43,477 bases of DNA. Source: Candidatus Daviesbacteria bacterium (GTDB taxonomy: Bacteria; Patescibacteriota; Microgenomatia; Daviesbacterales; UBA10151). Below the pieces are notes generated by a model that saw only the letters and a program-made list of their open reading frames with translations, did not search any database and was not told the DNA's origin. This document shows positions 3 to 17,572 of this stretch, one piece after another. The stretch covers positions 1-43,477 of the forward strand of contig JACPKL010000007.1 of assembly GCA_016187035.1 (NCBI GenBank), written 5' to 3'. Every line of letters begins with the position of its first letter. Positions within the stretch are counted from its first letter, which is position 1. A program made the translations under genes and the position numbers.

Positions 3-542
3 ATGGTGACTGTTACCTTCTTTGACTCAACTGTCAAATCTACTTCAGATGCGGTTCAGTTGCGATACGCCTGGTCTCCTGACTCAGGCGCAGTAATTAA
101 TGTCCCCAACTGGTCAGAGATTAAATTCCGAGAACCGGTGGAGGTTGGAGGATTTACCTCACGTAGAGTGGAGTTAGGGCAAGGGGAAATAGAGGTAAAG
201 ATAAGAAATAACAAACCTGCTGAAAATCAGTTTGGTATAGATGCAGGTTGGTTGGGCGTAACAGCCAGCAGAACACATTTTTGGGTTAGCCAAAGTGAGG
301 ATAAGAAAGTGGCCGTGATTGGTGTTTATGAGGGAGAAGTGGAGGTTAAAACTAAAGATGGACGAACAGTTAAAGTTAAGACGGACACAGATAAGCCGGG
401 AGTGGCGGTGGTTTCCCAAAAGCTTTCTCCTGTCAAACTGGCTATTGCTGGTTTGGTGTTAGTGTTAATTATCGGCGGTACAGTTTTGATTCTAAAGAGA
501 AAGTTTGCCTCAATAGTAACAGGTAAAAAGAGATCAAAATGA
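3..542 (+). CDS. Membrane-anchored hypothetical protein, possibly FecR-like beta-rich domain; may be 5'-truncated at the window edge
   Basis: 179-aa ORF; beta-rich region (VELGQGEIEV, VIGVYEGEVEV) resembles FecR-type repeats; C-terminal TM helix followed by a basic tail. Confidence 0.55.
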   Translation: MVTVTFFDSTVKSTSDAVQLRYAWSPDSGAVINVPNWSEIKFREPVEVGGFTSRRVELGQGEIEVKIRNNKPAENQFGIDAGWLGVTASRTHFWVSQSEDKKVAVIGVYEGEVEVKTKDGRTVKVKTDTDKPGVAVVSQKLSPVKLAIAGLVLVLIIGGTVLILKRKFASIVTGKKRSK

Positions 543-5101: not shown

Positions 5102-5136
5102 TTTAGCTTGCAACCTCGAAGGTTGCTGCCTAAACT
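5102..5136. repeat. REP-like palindrome, family B (CAACCTCGAAGGTTG)
   Basis: TTTAGCTT-GCAACC-TCGAA-GGTTGC-TGCCTAAACT; overlaps the ribBA stop codon. Confidence 0.9.
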
Positions 5137-6777: not shown

Positions 6778-7349
6778 ATTAGTTTTTCTATATATTTTGC
6801 TAATATATCCACCTCAATATTAACCAAATCTCCTAAGTTCAGCGTGTGGAGCATTGTATTATTCCAGGTAAAGGGAACAATTCCAACAGTAAAAAAATCT
6901 TTTTTAGTGTCAATAACTGTCAAAGAGATCCCGTTTATAGCAATCGAGCCTTTTTCCACAATGTACCTGCTTAAGTTTATAGGCACAGAAAATTCGATGA
7001 TTTTGCCATTTTTGTCTTTGACTGCCCTGACAACCCTAGCTACCCCATCAATATGCCCCTGTATAATATGTCCTGACAGGAAAGTTTTTGGGGTAACAGG
7101 CAATTCCAAATTAACAATGTCATCTTTTTTTAAATTTATTAACATGGTCCTGCTTAATGTTTCAGGCATCACTTCCACAGAAAAACCATTTCTAGTTTTT
7201 CTTAAAACTGTCAAGCAAATACCGTTAACAGCAATGCTTGCACCTTTAGTTAATTTCTTACAAAGCTGGGAAGAAGCAGAGAAGACAAAAATGAACCCAT
7301 CTCTTTTTTCTAATTTTCCTAAGTTGTTGATTATGCCGGTGAACATCAT
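6774..7349 (-). CDS. ribE: Riboflavin synthase alpha chain (start revised from 7361 to ATG at 7349 or 7346)
   Basis: Canonical N-terminus MFTGII; GASIAVNGICLTV and GHIIQGHIDG motifs; the longer ORF start lies inside the riboswitch. Confidence 0.95.
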   Translation of the reverse strand: MMFTGIINNLGKLEKRDGFIFVFSASSQLCKKLTKGASIAVNGICLTVLRKTRNGFSVEVMPETLSRTMLINLKKDDIVNLELPVTPKTFLSGHIIQGHIDGVARVVRAVKDKNGKIIEFSVPINLSRYIVEKGSIAINGISLTVIDTKKDFFTVGIVPFTWNNTMLHTLNLGDLVNIEVDILAKYIEKLI

Positions 7350-7472
7350 TCTCTCTTTCATCCCGACTGTACGGTCGCTGCAGGAGTTTCACCTGCTCAT
7401 CCACGTACCAGACGGTACGCGGTCGTGGAGTTTACCACCGATTAGGATTTTCACCCAAACCCCGAAAGAACA
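7350..7472 (-). ncRNA. FMN riboswitch (RFN element)
   Basis: Minus strand reads TTCTTTCGGGGTTTGGGTGAAAATCCTAATCGGTGGTAAACTCCACGACC...CAGGTGAAACTCCTGCAGCGACCGTACAGTCGGGATGAAAGAGAG, matching RFN hallmarks; directly upstream of the riboflavin operon. Confidence 0.95.
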
Positions 7473-7478
7473 ATTAAT

Positions 7479-7557: not shown

Positions 7558-8226
7558 TTATTCTAAGGTTAAATGCTTTATCATTCCCAATTCCCTTTGG
7601 TAATCTGCCTGATTAAACACAAATTCCCTATATTTCTTCTCATTAATAATACCTAAAATTTGCTTAGTATCCACAAAAGGATATCTACCCTCACCTATAT
7701 AATTTAATAAAGATGACCAGGGATAACTTTCTAAATCTTTAATCTCCACTAAATAGCTGGTGGAAGGGTTTAAATGAATATATCTTGAAACATGTAAAAA
7801 CTGTTCTTCTGTAGTGATTCTGACGGTTTTGAACATTGGCTGGAACAAAGGACCGTTTCTAGCAGATTTAGCATTAAAATATTTAGCATAGCTATTCTGT
7901 AAATTACTTATAAATTTAACAATCCCGCGGTCAAGCTTTTGTTTTAGGAGAAAGTGAAAATGATTATCCATCAAGCAAAAAGCTAATATCTCTATATGCA
8001 GATGATTTTCTTTTATTAAATCATCAAAAATTTGTTTTCTTTGCTCTCTTTCTATATTTTTTAATTGAGAAAAACTAACTGGAGTATTCTTAAAACGGTA
8101 GTAATTTATCAAATCCAGGAAACGTAAAAAATCTATTGAGGTTGAAAATATCGGTATCCCTGCAACAGCCCTATTAAACACATGGTAAATTTCTGAAGTG
8201 ACTATGGGAACTTTTCTATATGGCAT
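7558..8226 (-). mobile_element. REP-associated tyrosine transposase (RAYT/TnpA-REP-like, HUH Y1 family), copy 1
   Basis: YHVFNR, FCLMDNHFHFLL (HUH), YAKYFN, RYIHLNP (catalytic Tyr) and YPWSS motifs; family A palindromes on both sides; no tnpB nearby. Confidence 0.9.
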
Positions 8227-8237
8227 AATTCAATTAT

Positions 8238-8283
8238 AACCCTGGGGTTCAAAGCTAATCAACCCCTGGGGTTTGAACGTAAC
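8238..8283. repeat. REP-like family A doublet upstream of RAYT-1
   Basis: AACCCTGGGGTTCAAAGCTAATCAACCCCTGGGGTTTGAACGTAAC; encodes the C-terminus and stop of the adjacent substrate-binding protein. Confidence 0.9.
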
Positions 8284-9898: not shown

Positions 9899-10300
9899 TT
9901 AATGAGCTAGCCACTGAAGGAAATGGGTAATAATACCTATCATGAAAGAGGCTACTACTGCTACCCAAAAAGTACTTAACCCTATAGCAGGAAGAGAGAT
10001 ACCAAAAAAATTTGCTCCTGGAAAATTATAAGGCAGCAGCTGAAAATCAGATATTATGGTAGTTAAGGCAAACAAAGCTAAAACATTAATAATCCAAGCA
10101 AATAATCCTAATGTTAATAAGTTAAGTGGTAAAAATAATATTTTCAAAAGTGGGACCAAAATAAAATTGATCAGCATAAAAGCAACTGCCCCAATCAGTA
10201 AACTCTTAATTCCCCCTGTATAGGTTAACCCTGGCAAATATCTTGTGGTGGCATAAAGGGAAACCAAATTTATGAGAAAATACCTTAGCAGAGTCTTCAT
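9899..10300 (-). CDS. 4-TM phage-holin-family (YvlD/DUF360-like) membrane protein
   Basis: PLNLLTLGLFAWIINVLAL signature; 133 aa hydrophobic. Confidence 0.85.
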   Translation of the reverse strand: MKTLLRYFLINLVSLYATTRYLPGLTYTGGIKSLLIGAVAFMLINFILVPLLKILFLPLNLLTLGLFAWIINVLALFALTTIISDFQLLPYNFPGANFFGISLPAIGLSTFWVAVVASFMIGIITHFLQWLAH

Positions 10301-11604
10301 CCTAATATTCTATCACGTAATTTTCTGTGATAGGAAATGGCAAATCTGTGGGATTCATCACGGAGTTTTTGCAGCAGCCTTAAAGATAAACTGCTCTTGG
10401 GTAATTTGATAATTTTACCTTCGGCAGGATAAAGCCACTCCCTTTTTTTGGCAAGACCAAAAACAGGAATTTGAAAATTGAAAATTGAAAATTGAAAATT
10501 TACTACTCTAGCCTGTCCCCTACCCCCATCTACTATTATTAGATCAGGGAATTGCCATTCTGTATGTTTTAACCTTCTTTTTATCATTTCTCTATGCATT
10601 CCTACATCATCTGGCCTGCCAGAAATTCTTATTTTAAATTTTCTATACTGGGATTTATCAATCTCACCAGCAATTATCACTACCATTGATCCTACCGCAT
10701 CTTTTCCGCCAATATTAGATATATCATAACCTTCAATTCTTCCAGGTAATTTATCTAAATTTAAATCTTTTTGTAGCTGCTTTAAAGCTAATTTATTTTC
10801 TTCTTCTAAAAAGTTAGGATTTTCTAAGTAAGCCTGGGCCCTATTAGTTTGAGTAAGATAAGAAATTCCATCTAACATTTTTTTTACTTGAGCAGCTTTT
10901 TCAAACTGCTGAGTCTTTGATAACTCCATCATTTCTTTTGATAATCCTGATACCAACTCTTCCTTTTTCCCTTCTAAGAATTTAGAGAATCTTTTGATAA
11001 TCTTGCTATATTCTTCTTTATTAATCATTCCTGTACACAAACCAGGGCACAATCCTAAATGATAATAGAAACAAGCTCTATGTTTAGCCTGCCCCGTACC
11101 ATACGATACTGGAGCCTGCAACCTCGAAGGTTGCAGCGTGAATTTGGGAGGGTTGCTACACCAGGGAAAAACCCTTCTAAGTTGCTTCAGAGTATTCCTT
11201 ACTGTCCTGGATGAAGGAAAAGGGCCAAAAAACTTTTTAACTGTTTTTAAATCTTTTTTCCTGATCGTGACTACTTTAGGAAACTGTTCATTTGATATAC
11301 CAATATAAAGAAAGTCTTTATCATCAGTTAATCTGATATTAAAAGGCGGAAGGTGTTTTTTAATCAAGTTAGCCTCCAGAATTAGGGCCTCTAATTCTGA
11401 TTCAGTAATATAGGTTTCAACTGAGGATATATTGGATACTAAGGCAGCAGTTCTACCATCAACATTACGGTTAAAATATGAGGAGACACGGTGATATAAA
11501 TTAATAGCTTTTCCAACATACAAAATATCTTCTTGGCTGCTTTTAAATATATAAACCCCACTTTTTTTGGGTAATTTTTCCTTGTTTAAAAAGGAAGGAA
11601 TCAT
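10297..11604 (-). CDS. uvrC: Excinuclease ABC subunit C (short form, no obvious C-terminal HhH)
   Basis: GIY-YIG region (GVYIF, LYVGKA), RIEGYDISN, PDLIIVDGGRGQ and RDESHRFA motifs. Confidence 0.95.
   Translation of the reverse strand: MIPSFLNKEKLPKKSGVYIFKSSQEDILYVGKAINLYHRVSSYFNRNVDGRTAALVSNISSVETYITESELEALILEANLIKKHLPPFNIRLTDDKDFLYIGISNEQFPKVVTIRKKDLKTVKKFFGPFPSSRTVRNTLKQLRRVFPWCSNPPKFTLQPSRLQAPVSYGTGQAKHRACFYYHLGLCPGLCTGMINKEEYSKIIKRFSKFLEGKKEELVSGLSKEMMELSKTQQFEKAAQVKKMLDGISYLTQTNRAQAYLENPNFLEEENKLALKQLQKDLNLDKLPGRIEGYDISNIGGKDAVGSMVVIIAGEIDKSQYRKFKIRISGRPDDVGMHREMIKRRLKHTEWQFPDLIIVDGGRGQARVVNFQFSIFNFQIPVFGLAKKREWLYPAEGKIIKLPKSSLSLRLLQKLRDESHRFAISYHRKLRDRILG
10471..10500. repeat. Heptamer tandem repeat (TTGAAAA)x4 inside uvrC
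   Basis: Four perfect 7-bp units; encodes NFQFSIFNFQ. Confidence 0.9.
11082..11144. repeat. Composite 63-nt family B element in frame within uvrC, containing a nested 27-nt insert
   Basis: GTTTAGCCTG-[CCCCGTACCATACGATACTGGAGCCTG]-CAACCTCGAAGGTTGCAGCGTGAATT; AGCCTG duplicated at 11086-11091 and 11113-11118. Confidence 0.85.
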
Positions 11605-11628: not shown

Positions 11629-13524
11629 TTACCTTTTTGCTTTAACTGAAGCTTTGGCTTTGTAGATATGAGTCCCTAAAATAATAAAATAAATTATTCC
11701 CATAAGAGCAACAATACCAATGGTAATAAAGGGAAAGGTTTGAAAAATAATAAATGGTTGTACTTTTATGTCTTTGGAAAATTTCTGGCTACCAATTAAG
11801 ACAGTTATTGTATCATTAAATCTATCAAATAAAGTTTTTGTTCTGATATTAAAATCAAAAGTAGACTCACCAAAGGCTGGGATTGGACCTAAAATTTGGC
11901 TTTCTCCTCCCAGAACAATTAATTTATTGCTTTTAACTATTAAATCATCTGATGGATAAAAAGCATTACCTACATTAGAAATTTTAACTTTGATTTTTCC
12001 GGGAAATCCTGCCAAAAATGGATTGGGGCTGTCTATTTTAACATCTAAAAGAGGCGTTCCCAAAAAGTCATTTTCTGATAGGTTAACTTTAACATCACGG
12101 GTATCCTGGTTTTCAAACTTATATGAACCTGCTGGAATAGGAGATTCAGAAGAACTTCCCCTGGTAACAAAAACAAAATGGTTTAGGTCAAATTTATTAA
12201 AATAATCAACTCCCCCAGAGGTGTTCTCCCAGGTTGGATCAACCATTACCCAACCTTTTTTATCATCCCAATACTGCGGCCAGGAATGTAAAATGTCTTT
12301 TGTAAAAGAAAGAGGACGCAGGGTGGTGTTGGTGGTATAGGCATAACCATCAAGCTCTCTGGCTGGAATATTTGCAGCACGGGCAAAAGCTATAAACAAA
12401 TCAGTAAATTCCATACAAACTGCAGAATCTGGATTGTTTAACGCTGTAACTGCCCCTAACCTTTCTATATTATCCTTAAGTCTGCCTGAATCATACTTGA
12501 GAGTGTTTACTACATATTGATAAATTAATTTAACTTTATCTTCTTCTTTGGCATCAGCTAAAATTTCTTTAAGCTTAGCTTGAATTTGTGGATGGTCTTT
12601 TTCCCAATATTTAGCTGGCTGGGTATATTTTTTCCTTAAATTATTATCTAAGTTAGGTCTTTTAACTTTACTTATGGTGTATAGTTTAGAGGAACCGATC
12701 AGTTTAACATCCAATTTTTCATTTCTGTTTAATTTATACCAAGCTAAATAATTACCATCATCATCAACAGTTACATTTAAAGGTTTAGGCTCAAAACGTT
12801 GGTAAATAACATCTTGGTAAGCTGTATCTGGAGGTAGAGCAATGTTGGTTAAAATAGGTACTAAATTATTATTTTCTAAATGATAGGTCAGGTTAAAATC
12901 AAATAGCTGATTGGTGCCAAAACTAGCTGAAACTCCAGATTGTTCAAGTTGGTCTTTGTTAAAAGTTAAAAATATTTTACCACCTGATTTGGATTGAGTT
13001 TTAGGGGTAGGGGAGATGGCAGTTGGCTCACCAAATTCTACAGGGACAGAAATAGTCAGGTTATAATCTAATAAATTTTCAGAAGAAACTTTGGGAGCTC
13101 TTATCTCCCAGACCTTTCCTAAATTCTGGGCAAAATCTTTAGATTTAAATTGAAGAGTCCAGGGTAAAACTTTGTTTATACCTGCTACCTGCTGATTAAA
13201 TTTAACTGAAATAATGGTTGAGGTATTTTTTTGCTCAGGGGTAACTTGCATAATCCCTCCCCCATCAGAAGCTTTAATATCAGAAATTTGGGTTGCACCA
13301 ATAATTAACTTAAATTGATTAGCATAATATTCTGAGGTCAGGTTTGTTAAATTAATTTTTTCAGTAACTGTGGTAATACCTGATTGATCTATGTCATACA
13401 AAACATTATAAGAGGTGGCAAATTCCTCAGCAGCATAAACAGTAGACAAAGTGCAGGTTACAGTGAGCAGGAAGAACAAGATACTGTAAACTAAAACCTG
13501 TAACCTGAAGCCTCTTTTAAACAT
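11629..13524 (-). CDS. Transglutaminase-like domain membrane protein
   Basis: Catalytic-triad motifs CMEFTDLF, HSWPQYW and VDPTW; signal peptide and C-terminal TM helix. Confidence 0.9.
   Translation of the reverse strand: MFKRGFRLQVLVYSILFFLLTVTCTLSTVYAAEEFATSYNVLYDIDQSGITTVTEKINLTNLTSEYYANQFKLIIGATQISDIKASDGGGIMQVTPEQKNTSTIISVKFNQQVAGINKVLPWTLQFKSKDFAQNLGKVWEIRAPKVSSENLLDYNLTISVPVEFGEPTAISPTPKTQSKSGGKIFLTFNKDQLEQSGVSASFGTNQLFDFNLTYHLENNNLVPILTNIALPPDTAYQDVIYQRFEPKPLNVTVDDDGNYLAWYKLNRNEKLDVKLIGSSKLYTISKVKRPNLDNNLRKKYTQPAKYWEKDHPQIQAKLKEILADAKEEDKVKLIYQYVVNTLKYDSGRLKDNIERLGAVTALNNPDSAVCMEFTDLFIAFARAANIPARELDGYAYTTNTTLRPLSFTKDILHSWPQYWDDKKGWVMVDPTWENTSGGVDYFNKFDLNHFVFVTRGSSSESPIPAGSYKFENQDTRDVKVNLSENDFLGTPLLDVKIDSPNPFLAGFPGKIKVKISNVGNAFYPSDDLIVKSNKLIVLGGESQILGPIPAFGESTFDFNIRTKTLFDRFNDTITVLIGSQKFSKDIKVQPFIIFQTFPFITIGIVALMGIIYFIILGTHIYKAKASVKAKR
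13440..13507. repeat. Two degenerate heptamer-period tracts in the signal-peptide region of the transglutaminase-like gene
   Basis: CAGTAGA CAAAGTG CAGGTTA CAGTGAG CAG (13440-13470) and CTGTAAA CTAAAAC CTGTAAC CTG (13484-13507). Confidence 0.6.
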
Positions 13525-13567
13525 TCATAATATTGTAGCAAAAACAAACCTGGGAAGCTAATCTAGA

Positions 13568-13604
13568 AGTTTAGCTTGCAACCTCGAAGGTTGTATCGTA
13601 AACT
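13568..13604. repeat. REP-like family B element upstream of RAYT-2; doubles as a putative promoter
   Basis: AGTTTAGCTTG-CAACC-TCGAA-GGTTG-TATCGTAAACT; TTGCAA (13576-81), 17 nt, TAAACT (13599-604), 6 nt, ATG. Confidence 0.9.
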
Positions 13605-13610
13605 AAAATT

Positions 13611-14264
13611 ATGCCAGGAAGAATAATTCCGCTAGTAACTGGAGAGTTTTATCATATTTATAATCGAGGCAGTGAAAAAAGGGATATTTTTACTCAATCA
13701 AGGGATTATCGCAGATTTCAAAAAACCTTTTACTACTACCAATTCTTAGGTCCTAAACCAAGTTTCTCTAAATTTTCAAAACCCGACTTGAATTCTTTCA
13801 AAGCTAATCCTGATAAGAAAATTGTTGATGTGATATGTTACGCTCTTATGCCAAACCATTTCCATTTCCTGCTTCGCCAGCTTAAAGAAAATGGAATTTC
13901 AATATTTTTGAGTCAACTTTCAAATAGCTACACAAAATACTTCAATACTAAATATAAAAGAGTAGGACCTCTCCTTCAGGGAGCATTCAAAGCAGTCCTT
14001 ATAGAATCAGAGGAACAACTAATACACTTATCCCGTTATATCCACCTTAATCCAGTAGTTTCTGGGCTGACTAAAAATTTAGGTAGTTACCATTGGTCTT
14101 CTTATACAGAATATATGAGTGGTCAGACATTATACTGCTCTCCGGAAGAAATCCTTAGTCTTTATCCAACTGTCAAAAATTATCAGAAATTTGTAGAAGC
14201 TCAAATAGAGTATGGTACTACTTTGGAAATACTAAAACATAGAATAATAGCTGAAGATATCTAA
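13611..14264 (+). mobile_element. REP-associated tyrosine transposase (RAYT/TnpA-REP-like, HUH Y1 family), copy 2
   Basis: YHIYNRG, YALMPNHFHFLL (HUH), YTKYFN, RYIHLNP and YHWSSY motifs; family B palindromes on both sides. Confidence 0.9.
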
Positions 14265-14269
14265 AATTC

Positions 14270-14330
14270 GTGCGTCAACCTCGAAGGCCTTCGGCCGTGA
14301 GCCTCAGGCCGAATCGGTTGCAGGCTAAAT
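14270..14330. repeat. Family B element downstream of RAYT-2, interrupted by a 30-nt hairpin
   Basis: GCGTCAACCTCGAAGG-[CCTTCGGCCGTGAGCCTCAGGCCGAATCGG]-TTGCAGGCTAAAT. Confidence 0.85.
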
Positions 14331-14352
14331 ATAGGTGTAAACATAAATATTA

Positions 14353-14628
14353 TTATAATTGTTCAGGCCTATCTCTAAAGACTATATAGCAATGACTATC
14401 GATATTATATCTAGCCTGACTAGTATCAATGGATCCTTCACTTAATTGCCTTTGGACTTTTGGAACGTATCTCCTAAAATCTTCTTCTAATTTGGCTAAT
14501 ATGTGCAGACCTCTTCTTAATCTCCACCTGTACTCATTAGGTGCTCCCCACCTAGGTGGATCTGTTCGTCTATGGCTAGTGACATCGATTTTGTTAAGTT
14601 TTACTAAAATTTCCACTACATTACCCAT
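14353..14628 (-). CDS. Small hypothetical protein
   Basis: 91-aa ORF; extended -10 TGA-TAGAAT (14636-14641) 7 nt before ATG. Confidence 0.55.
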   Translation of the reverse strand: MGNVVEILVKLNKIDVTSHRRTDPPRWGAPNEYRWRLRRGLHILAKLEEDFRRYVPKVQRQLSEGSIDTSQARYNIDSHCYIVFRDRPEQL

Positions 14629-14659
14629 AAAAAATATTCTATCATACTATAGGGTCGTA

Positions 14660-17572
14660 TCACAAGATCTTTGTCAGATATTGACCTGTGTAGGAGGATT
14701 TGATTTTGGAAATATCTTTGGGAGTACCTTCTGCTACAATCCTACCCCCTCCTACTCCACCTTCTGGACCTAGATCAATTACCCAGTCTGTATTTTTAAT
14801 CACATCTAAATTATGCTCAATAATTATGACTGTATTGCCAAAATAAGTAAGCTTTCTTAAAATATTTAATAACCTCTCTATATCTGCAAAATGCAAGCCT
14901 GTTGTTGGCTCATCTAAAATATAAACAGTCTGGCCTGTTTGCCTTTTGGATAATTCTGCTGACAGCTTAATTCTTTGGGCTTCCCCCCCTGACAAAGTGG
15001 GAGCGCTCTGGCCCAGTTTGATATAACCTAATCCAACATCATTTAGAACCTCAAGTTTATTTTTTAAATTAGGAATATTTTCAAAAAACTTTAAAGCTTC
15101 CTCGCAAGTCATATTTAAAACCTCTGAGATATTTTTTTCTTTAAAATGAATATCCAAAGCTTCCTGGTTGTATCTTGCTCCATTACAGGCTTCACAAGTC
15201 ACATACACATCCGGCAAAAACTGCATCTCAATTTTTAATTGCCCTTCTCCCTCACATACCTCACACCTGCCCCCTTTAACATTAAAAGAAAATCTGCCTG
15301 GCCCATAACCTCTGATTTTGCTTTCCGGACTTTGAGAAAACAACTCCCTGATAAAAGTAAAGCAGGAGGTATAAGTAGCAGGATTGGATCTGGGTGTCCT
15401 GCCAATTGGGGATTGGTCTACTAGAACTACTTTATCCACAAATTCTGTGCCTGTTAAATCCTGAAAGCTACCCGGTCTTTCCTTAGACCTGTAGATTTTT
15501 TGGGCTAAAGCCTTATATAAAATATCATGGATTAAAGTTGACTTACCTGAACCTGATACTCCTGTGATGGCTATAAATTGACTTAGCGGAAAATTAACAT
15601 TAATATTTTTCAAATTATGCTCTGAGGCGCCTGTTAATTTAAGATTACCAACATTAACATAATCTCTTTTTAATTCCCCGTTAACCTTAACTTGTTTCTT
15701 ACCTGATAAATACTGCCCTGTTAAAGAATTTTTATTTTTTTTAATCTGCTCAGGAGAACCAATAGCCACAATATTACCCCCATGCCCGCCTGCACCAGGC
15801 CCGATTTCCACCATTAAGTCTGCATTTTCCATCATCTCTGCGTCATGCTCATTAACTATCACAGTATTACCTAAATCCCTAAGTCTTTTTAGTGTTTCAA
15901 TTAATCTGCTGTTGTCTCTTTGATGTAAACCAATAGATGGTTCATCCAAAACATACAAAACTCCTGAAAGTCCTGAACCTATTTGGGAAGCCAGTCTGAT
16001 TCTTTGGGATTCTCCCCCAGCTAAAGTCATAGCAGCCCTGTCTAAAGTTAAATAATCCAAACCTACATCAACTAAAAACTGCAGACGCTGGTGAATTTCC
16101 TTAATAATAGGTTGGGCAATCTGGTTTTCCCGCCCAGTCAACCCACCCTTAGGGTGTGAAGCTAACTTGTTTATCCATCCCAATGCCTCTTTAATAGATT
16201 GTGTGGTAACTTCAGCAATACTTAGCCCATCTATGATAATAGATAAGGCTTCTTCTTTAAGCCTGGCCCCGGCACATTTAGGGCAGGTTTCCCTGTACAT
16301 ATATTTTTCTATTTCACTCTTTACATAATCCGATTCTGTTTGCTGGTATCTTTCTTTTAAATAAGGCACTAAACCCTGGTATGCAGAATAAAAGTAGGTC
16401 CATCTGCCTTGTCGATTCTTTCCTTCTACTTTAAATTTCTCCTCCCCTGCTCCTTGAAGTAAAATATTCCTGGCCTTTTCTGTTAACTGACCTAATCTTG
16501 TTTTTAAGTCAAAACCATATTCTTTTCCAACAGCTTCAATCAGCCTGGAAAACCAGCTTTCTTGAGTAGCGAGCTTCGACCAGGGTAAAATCCCACCCTC
16601 AGCAATAGACAGGATCGGGTTTAATACCATATCAGGATCTATTTCCAAAAGAGAACCTAAACCATTACAAGTAAGACAAGCCCCATGAGGGGAATTAAAA
16701 GAAAACAGCCTGGGTTCTACTTCAGATAAAGCTAAATTATCCAAAGGACAGGCAAACCTTTCTGAATACAAATGATCTTCCATTTTTTTAGGGTTTTGAG
16801 GAAATTCCAATGATGCATCTTTGACTTCAGAAATTATTACAGAACCTTCACCTAATTTGACTGCTGTCTCAATACTTTGTGACAATCTTGAGGTAAAACT
16901 TTGTTCATGAATAACTTTTTTATCCAAAACTAAACGATCTACTACCACATCAATGGTATGTTTATTAGTTTTAATCAGGAATAAGTCTTCACTTAAATCC
17001 CTAATTTGTTTATCAATTCTGGCTTTAGAAAAACCCTTTTTTCTCAAATCCTCAAACAAAGATGAGTATTCCCCTTTTCTGTCTTTTACCACAGGGGCCA
17101 AAATCATAATTCTGTTTCCCTTACTTTTGACTTTTACATTTTGATTTTTGACTTGTTCTACTATCTGCTCCACACTCATCCTGGAAATTTCCCTGCCACA
17201 TTTAGGACAATGCGGGTGGCCAATCCTGGCAAAAAGAAGCCTTAAATAATCATAAATTTCAGTAGTAGTGCCAACTGTGGATCTGGGGTTATGGGATACT
17301 CCTTTTTGGTCAATAGAAATAGCAGGCGAAAGTCCCTCAATATAATCTACATCTGGTTTATCCATTATCCCCAAAAATTGCCTGGCATAAGCTGATAAGG
17401 ATTCTACATATCTTCTTTGTCCCTCAGCATATAAAGTATCAAAGGCTAAAGAGGATTTGCCTGAACCGGAAATCCCGGTAAAAACCACCAGTTTATTTTT
17501 GGGGATTTCCAAATCAATATTTTTTAAATTGTGCTCACGGGCTCCCCTAATTATTATTTTGTCGATTGCCAT
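14660..17572 (-). CDS. uvrA: Excinuclease ABC subunit A
   Basis: Two Walker A motifs ([16 protein letters not shown]), LAGGESQR and LSGGEAQR signatures, zinc fingers; 970 aa. Confidence 0.99.
16137..16166. repeat. REP-like family E element (CACCCTTAGGGTG) in frame within uvrA
   Basis: GTCAACC-CACCC-TTA-GGGTG-TGAAGCTAAC; encodes LASHPKGGL; same core as the intergenic copy at 29985-30003. Confidence 0.75.
17124..17151. repeat. Degenerate heptamer tandem repeat inside uvrA
   Basis: CTTTTGA CTTTTAC ATTTTGA TTTTTGA; encodes [10 protein letters not shown]. Confidence 0.65.

Follow-up and report, generated by a model that had tools for sequence, protein, structure and literature searches.

A REP-derived sequence as the predicted leaderless promoter of the RAYT-2 gene in a Daviesbacteria genome

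The gene designated RAYT-2 lies in a 43,477-nt stretch of DNA (contig JACPKL010000007.1 of assembly GCA_016187035.1, Candidatus Daviesbacteria), hereafter the window. The genome comprises 1.04 Mb in 13 contigs, with a G+C content of 36%, and 765 long ORFs were called in it. The RAYT-2 protein matches PF01797 (Y1_Tnp, IS200-like) above the cut-off. Its sole NCBIfam match, to model NF047646 (REP_Tyr_transpos), scores 51.6 bits (E = 8.6e-14) and does not reach the curated cut-off of 80, which makes the protein a distant relative of the curated RAYT model rather than an equivalog. In a profile built from 20 relatives, H83 and H85 (HFH, residues 83-85) and Y143 (RYIHLNP) are invariant. A search of the PDB with the single sequence returned nothing meaningful, and the profile was required to reach E. 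coli TnpA-REP (4er8, E = 0.005), its best match among solved structures; ISDra2 TnpA was matched as well (E = 0.0075). Orthologues keep the MPGR N-terminus. Relatives of the protein are present in 81 of the 96 genomes of the family, usually several per genome, and the genomes that hold them are labelled as members of the Microgenomates group of Patescibacteria (Levybacteria, Daviesbacteria). Two Logan DNA contigs of ~1 kb each also encode the protein, and both stop at the REP that follows the gene.

RAYT-2 is bordered on each side by a family B REP (Table 1), as are its orthologues. Its two neighbours, a transglutaminase-like gene identified by PF01841 and uvrA, are both on the opposite strand, so that the first is divergent from RAYT-2 and the second convergent with it. 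At least 19 further genomes of the family keep this arrangement, as expected of a vertically inherited gene and not of a hopping insertion sequence. The six Y1 paralogues of the genome share only 35-56% identity, each having a different hairpin, and an ordinary multi-copy IS200 was ruled out by this divergence together with the synteny. At some loci, extra genes have been inserted upstream, and there the REP remains attached to the RAYT gene. The intergenic region 5' of RAYT-2 measures 86 nt, the left half of which is occupied by a predicted leaderless promoter of the transglutaminase-like gene. Its TGnTACAAT block (attgtaRcaaa on the + strand) is kept in syntenic orthologues, and its -35 box is only 14 nt from that predicted for RAYT-2, which places the two promoters back to back. 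On the other side of the gene, the downstream REP is split at 14288-14317 by a G+C-rich hairpin of ~30 nt (CCTTCGGCC...GGCCGAA), apparently a member of a different palindrome class that was inserted into a REP arm. The ~325 nt between this REP and the uvrA stop codon (14335-14660) hold no convincing gene, only overlapping low-complexity ORFs of 91 and 114 aa, and have no Rfam match. Across the window, an Rfam scan matched a single family, the FMN riboswitch (RF00050, 88 bits; 7346-7473, - strand), and returned nothing at the RAYT-2 locus.

Table 1. Features of the RAYT-2 locus, in coordinates of the window
Feature	Position	Strand	Details
Divergent leaderless promoter of the transglutaminase-like gene (predicted)	13525..13561	-	TTAGCT-18-TGCTACAAT-7-ATG; TTAGCT at 13561-13556, 18 nt, TGC-TACAAT at 13540-13532, 7 nt, ATG at 13524
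Family B REP palindrome upstream of RAYT-2	13568..13604	+	AGTTTAGCTTGCAACCTCGAAGGTTGTATCGTAAACT; degenerate copy of the dispersed consensus
Predicted -35 hexamer TTGCAA	13576..13581	+	TT contributed by the foot and GCAA by the left arm
Inner hairpin GCAACCT-CGA-AGGTTGT	13578..13594	+	Spans the -35 and part of the 17-nt spacer; fold
17-nt spacer	13582-13598	+	CCTCGAAGGTTGTATCG
Predicted -10 hexamer TAAACT	13599..13604	+	Right foot of the REP
6-nt gap AAAATT	13605-13610	+	Between TAAACT and ATG
ATG start codon, predicted transcription start (leaderless mRNA)	13611..13613	+	
RAYT-2 ORF	13611..14264	+	217 aa, Y1/HUH tyrosine transposase-like; PF01797 match
Downstream family B REP	14270..14334	-	Feet inverted relative to the upstream copy; ~30-nt hairpin insert; repeat D16; fold

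An earlier reading of this DNA, made from sequence only, had laid out the segment before RAYT-2 as TTGCAA, 17 nt, TAAACT, 6 nt and ATG, and this description is exact to the base. The same reading drew the -35 box from the left foot and arm of the REP and the -10 box from its right foot, with the hairpin in the spacer. The single-stranded fold of the REP bears this out, since it joins AGTTTA to TAAACT and GCAACCT to AGGTTGT (-6.2 kcal/mol, z = -3.0). Each hexamer agrees with the consensus at four of six positions, and the resulting 8/12 falls under the 9/12 threshold of a consensus promoter scan, which omits the site for this reason. No TGn extension precedes the -10 box, and in such a case some -35 contact is normally needed. 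An SD-like motif is likewise absent from the 86 nt before the ATG. Because a comparable layout is shared by 4.4% of the long ORFs of this genome, and by 0.3% of all its ATG triplets, a single instance is unremarkable by itself. Taken alone, the geometry is weak evidence, and the case rests on context and comparison.

The first such context is the genome itself. The sequence-only reading stated that many genes here share a leaderless layout with 6 nt between the -10 box and the start codon, and this holds. TANNNT ends 6 nt before the start codon in 14.5% of the 765 long ORFs, against a background of ~4%, and the peak is sharp at exactly 6 nt, with shoulders at 7-9 nt. Few of these ORFs are preceded by an SD-like tetramer. 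When the 111 genes with a gap of 6 nt are aligned, 91% of which start with ATG, a TG appears at -15/-14 (the extended -10) along with a weak TTG at -35 to -33. The TANNNT peak, in conjunction with TGn and TTG, indicates that the organism uses a sigma70-type signal. The -35 information in the promoters of the genome is small, ~0.1 bit per column, compared with the strong TAnnnT and TGn. Roughly one fifth or more of the long ORFs are leaderless by sequence, with TGnTAnnnT ending 6-8 nt before ATG, and this layout may be a general mode of expression in this Microgenomates-type genome. In place of the consensus scan, we used a position weight matrix (PWM) trained on 212 leaderless-gene sites, with the RAYT genes left out. 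The RAYT-2 site scores 7.5 bits, about the median of the training set (mean 7.0), and ranks within the top 3.5% of 55,876 TANNNT sites. It is also the best + strand site of the 86-nt intergenic region, and it conforms to the sigma70-type leaderless layout, in which the boxes are 16-18 nt apart and the -10 ends 6-8 nt before the start.

The second-best + strand PWM site of the intergenic region, TAATCT at 13559-13564 (6.6 bits), lends itself to another reading. Here, the promoter would lie further upstream (TAGCAA-17-TAATCT, ending at 13564), the hairpin would sit in a leader of ~40 nt and, once transcribed, modulate stability or translation, and the hexamers within the REP would be coincidental. 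Precedent exists in IS200, where tnpA is controlled by RNA hairpins in the leader. Nevertheless, orthologues do not conserve TAATCT as TAnnnT (they have CAATCT, CAATCA or TAATCC), and the site coincides with the -35 box of the divergent promoter (TTRGCT) on the other strand. For these two reasons, TAATCT is unlikely to be the real promoter. Control through a 5' UTR is also at odds with the lack of an SD-like sequence before the ATG and with the distance from REP to ATG, which is held at 6-8 nt across lineages and which a UTR model does not need. Moreover, at loci where the upstream neighbours differ, the REP alone travels with the gene. We consider IS200-style control of RAYT-2 through its 5' UTR to be very unlikely.

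Conservation of the 17-nt spacing upstream of RAYT orthologues had been put forward in the sequence-only reading as a check on the promoter. Among 30 orthologous loci, which are phylogenetically non-independent, 22 keep TTG(C/A)(A/C)A-17-TAnnnT with exactly 17 nt, mostly 6-8 nt before the ATG; since 17 nt is also imposed by the geometry of the REP, this constancy within the clade that carries the hairpin in the spacer is not independent evidence of a promoter. About a quarter of the orthologues depart from the exact pattern (L010, L012, L022, L025, L033): the REP directly adjoins the ATG in some, others have a degenerate -10, and a single one has a longer gap. Two types of stem occur among orthologues, TTGCAACCT...AGGTTGC and TTGACACCT...AGGTGT. 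In 21 orthologous copies, two stem pairs (columns 12-26 and 13-25) show covariation (A-T/C-G versus C-G/A-T), with a score that lies above all 500 shuffles and amounts to roughly one evolutionary event. The covarying pairs fall inside the -35 hexamer (TTGCAA/GGTTGC versus TTGACA/GGTGT). The feet are more informative. The left foot is poorly conserved, whereas the right foot, TAAACT, is strongly so. TAnnnT is retained even where complementarity to the left foot has been lost, and right-foot variants such as TAGAAT, TAATAT and TAAAAT approach TATAAT without compensating changes on the left. This pattern fits a putative -10 box rather than a structural palindrome.

The upstream copy may also be compared with other members of its own repeat family. 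The repeat core, GCAACCTCGAAGGTTG, is matched 10 times in the window, compared with 0.2 matches expected, and about 13 family B elements occur genome-wide. In these 13, the perfectly palindromic CTGCAA is found in eight and TTGCAA in four. TTGNNN-17-TANNNT is present in just two, namely the RAYT-2 copy and a copy at 5108, and only the RAYT-2 copy has an ORF at leaderless distance. Dispersed family B REPs were considered as promoters of other genes and rejected, as no dispersed copy combines both boxes with a start at leaderless distance. Seven related genomes contain just 2-8 copies of the repeat, two of them flanking the RAYT gene, and copies that are not upstream mostly have CTG. All 10 RAYT-adjacent copies with this stem have TTG, in contrast to the CTG of most others (approximate Fisher p = 9e-5, with copies that are phylogenetically non-independent). 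The RAYT-2 copy reads TTGCAA...TATCG where dispersed copies read CTGCAA...CAGCG, and it folds less stably as single-stranded DNA (-6.2 kcal/mol, versus -9.2 and -8.3 for dispersed copies). Since its right arm is degenerate, the other strand no longer has a mirror-image -35. We infer from these comparisons that the RAYT-adjacent REP has become specialised for promoter use, through T for C at the first -35 position and a weakened, asymmetric palindrome. The putative RAYT-2 promoter thus seems to be REP-derived and to have drifted toward promoter function, away from the ideal hairpin.

Repeats of this and other kinds also occur inside genes. A family B copy at 11112-11146 lies in frame within the UvrC ORF (10297-11604, - strand) and leaves it unbroken, and the uvrC gene that bears it still shows GIY-YIG, UVR and RNase H domains. 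Further REP-like hairpins are found inside ORFs, for instance at 16144 (uvrA) and 24292. Hairpins of the form CACCT-NNN-AGGTG occur on contigs C5, C6, C8 and C9. Many are REPIN-like, being arranged as inverted doublets with a spacer of ~14 nt (aaaaatgc...tta), as in C5:14787-14830 and C5:20600-20643. Other hairpins of this form precede GGCTTTGACTCC or GGCTTTCTCGAGAGTCCAC modules, and a number of them seem to lie within long ORFs.

The same arrangement recurs with unrelated repeats. Four of the five other Y1 genes of the genome are preceded by a REP hairpin, TTGACA or TTGATT, 17-18 nt, TAnnnT (TTTAGT in one of the four) and 6-8 nt to ATG or GTG; hairpin and boxes are both missing from the fifth (C1 228787). 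In three paralogues, a perfect TTGACA closely follows the hairpin and the spacer itself contains none, yet the 17-nt spacing is still held. Within the window, RAYT-1 (7558-8226, - strand) is arranged likewise around another repeat, family A (AACCCCAGGGGTT): its upstream region (8227-8283) contains TTGATT, 18 nt that cover a second partial hairpin, TATAAT, 6 nt and ATG. Many loci from other classes of Patescibacteria also have a hairpin 5' of TTGACA and a 17-nt spacing filled by unrelated sequences. In genomes labelled as Parcubacteria and Saccharibacteria, a CACTTGG... hairpin family is located in the spacer, for example in TTGGAC-17-TAATAT-6-ATG. Many of the metagenome-assembled records behind loci L052-L131 bear the title 'uncultured Gammaproteobacteria bacterium' and a single record that of 'Nanoarchaeia archaeon'; on records with RAYT loci of the Patescibacteria type, such titles seem to be taxonomic misassignments.

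In 103 distinct RAYT upstream regions from Patescibacteria, the full layout, TTG-17-TANNNT-6..8-start, is present in 47%, versus the 4.4% of long ORFs in this genome noted above (Fisher p = 3e-28), and TANNNT at a gap of 6-8 nt is present in 65%, versus 28% of ordinary genes (p = 6e-13); the 103 loci are phylogenetically related, so that both p-values overstate independence. Even so, substrate recognition by itself does not readily explain why the layout recurs with such different stems and spacers.

Two readings give the boxes less weight. In one, TAAACT by itself would drive initiation at the ATG, and TTGCAA would be kept solely as a REP tag or arm recognised by the RAYT protein, so that the REP would overlap the promoter and make up just part of it. 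The low -35 information of promoters in this genome is compatible with this, as is the fact that TAGC-TTG-ACACC belongs to dispersed REP units in other families of the genome. TTGACA is also far stronger upstream of RAYT genes than upstream of ordinary genes, which suggests a second constraint. Indeed, TTG(A/C)(C/A)ACC appears in the dispersed REP consensus of some families, so that recognition by RAYT could conserve a strong -35. On the other hand, the RAYT-2 site does not have the TGn extension that would relieve the usual need for a -35 contact, CTG, the form of most dispersed copies of this family, is replaced by TTG in the copies next to RAYT genes, and the paralogues without a hairpin in the spacer nevertheless keep exactly 17 nt from TTGACA to TAnnnT. 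A promoter that depends on the -10 box only is, on balance, unlikely.

In the other, the boxes would be a by-product of an AT-rich palindrome that happens to resemble a promoter, RAYT-2 would be barely expressed or reached by read-through, and conservation of the repeat would reflect recognition of the REP by its RAYT. The match of 8/12 and the omission of the site by the consensus scan agree with this, palindromic AT-rich feet readily yield TAnnnT, and conservation of a REP beside its RAYT gene is expected from published work on RAYTs. However, with both neighbours on the opposite strand, read-through into RAYT-2 is unlikely. Nor does substrate recognition by itself account for the 6-8 nt held before the ATG, for TAnnnT being kept in the absence of left-foot complementarity, or for the same geometry around spacers that contain no hairpin. 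We regard this reading as highly improbable.

The reading that we favour, and hold to be probably correct, is that RAYT-2 is expressed as a leaderless mRNA from a sigma70-type promoter made of the REP that flanks it upstream. In this model, TTGCAA, from the foot and left arm, would serve as the -35 box, the spacer of 17 nt would consist of the hairpin with its right arm, and the -10 box would be the right foot, TAAACT. RNA polymerase would initiate at the RAYT-2 ATG, with transcription beginning at, or no more than 1-2 nt from, the A of the ATG. The proposal that the REP is the promoter of RAYT-2 is accordingly upheld in its architecture by orthologues, paralogues, distant RAYTs and the signature of the genome, and as to function it stays a prediction. 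The further claim, that the substrate of the enzyme is also its promoter, stands in part: a REP-derived sequence does overlap the predicted promoter, but the copy is degenerate and asymmetric and folds more weakly than dispersed copies.

That claim had been extended to autoregulation by cruciform extrusion or by RAYT binding or nicking, a proposal that is purely conjectural. Y1/HUH enzymes act on single-stranded hairpins and not on duplex promoters, and a stem of 7 bp, with feet that do not match, lends itself poorly to extrusion. Being degenerate and weaker in its fold, the RAYT-2 copy may be a poorer substrate for RAYT as well as a poor candidate for cruciform extrusion. That binding of RAYT to the hairpin, at times when the region is single-stranded, might feed back on its own expression is a speculation we find doubtful. 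A broader version would hold that, across Patescibacteria, RAYT genes use leaderless promoters that are their own REP substrate, with the hairpin either in the spacer or abutting the -35 box. The promoter would become single-stranded during replication, transcription-driven opening or extrusion, RAYT would sense the single-stranded hairpin, and feedback would tie its dosage to the state of the REP. We think it rather unlikely that all of this applies.

To our knowledge, the expression and regulation of RAYT genes are essentially uncharted, and the question of what REP-RAYT systems do is an old one. That RAYT genes are flanked by their own REPs is well described. The RAYT-2 locus resembles the REP-RAYT and REPIN-RAYT systems (E. 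coli TnpA-REP, the RAYTs of Pseudomonas) in its Y1/HUH protein, in a gene flanked by a dispersed palindromic repeat, in having several diverged paralogues, each with its own hairpin family, and in being syntenic and vertically inherited. It differs in that the protein is very diverged from the curated model, copy numbers of the repeat are tiny (~13 here, 2-8 in related genomes), and repeats are also found in frame inside genes. Within the literature that was searched, no paper places a RAYT promoter inside the flanking REP, and general speculation is all that it offers. Bertels and Rainey, as cited in PMC8049555, speculated that REPINs are promoters and RAYT a transcription factor, and the idea of such a pair also appears in PMC3337134. 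Di Nocera and colleagues raised the possibility that REP-like repeats act as promoters and left the question open (PMC3733652).

The left ends of IS200/IS605 elements offer a second comparison, in that the promoter of a Y1 transposase lies within a terminal region that bears a subterminal hairpin. In the IS200 family, the tnpA promoter is in the left end and the hairpin precedes it, an order that resembles the second layout described here, with the hairpin directly 5' of TTGACA. The tnpA gene of ISDra2 is likewise expressed from a promoter that the element itself carries (PMC2806898); no promoter map is given in the papers on ISDra2 and TnpB. At RAYT-2, by contrast, the hairpin is inside the promoter spacer and not beside the promoter, and the gene occupies one fixed locus in conserved synteny, unlike an insertion sequence present in many copies. 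The transcript is also predicted to be leaderless, whereas IS200 has a stem that sequesters the ribosome-binding site and an antisense RNA; if RAYT-2 is leaderless, these RNA-level controls cannot apply to it.

Among DDE insertion sequences such as IS1, IS30 and IS911, the transposase promoter is located in the terminal inverted repeat, and the resulting autoregulation is textbook knowledge. By analogy, DNA recognised by the transposase-like protein would overlap its promoter at RAYT-2 as well, which could allow autoregulation. The two cases differ, however, in that DDE enzymes bind duplex DNA, while RAYT is an HUH enzyme specific for single-stranded hairpins, and operator-style repression on duplex DNA is not expected of it. 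Repeat-borne promoters, such as the Correia elements of Neisseria and other 'mobile promoters', likewise consist of short dispersed palindromic repeats with -35- and -10-like boxes. In this genome, though, the RAYT-adjacent copy is the only one in which TTG and TAnnnT occur together with a start codon spaced as in leaderless genes, and dispersed copies mostly miss one box and precede no genes.

Because a transposase promoter inside its own end sequence is already textbook elsewhere, the advance is incremental and does not define a new category. What appears to be new is the combination of a predicted leaderless transcript, a hairpin inside the promoter spacer and a domesticated RAYT gene, conserved across a candidate phylum. 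The analysis also points to the leaderless promoter with an extended -10 box as a major way in which genes are expressed in this uncultured genome of the Microgenomates type. If the broader version were true, dispersal of REPs would seed latent promoter halves, which selection would silence by the change of TTG to CTG and by loss of TAnnnT, and the idea of REPINs as promoters and RAYT as their regulator would gain a concrete, testable form. This locus and its ~100 relatives provide a precise and conserved promoter model, in which the repeat and the predicted expression signal of the gene would be the same DNA.
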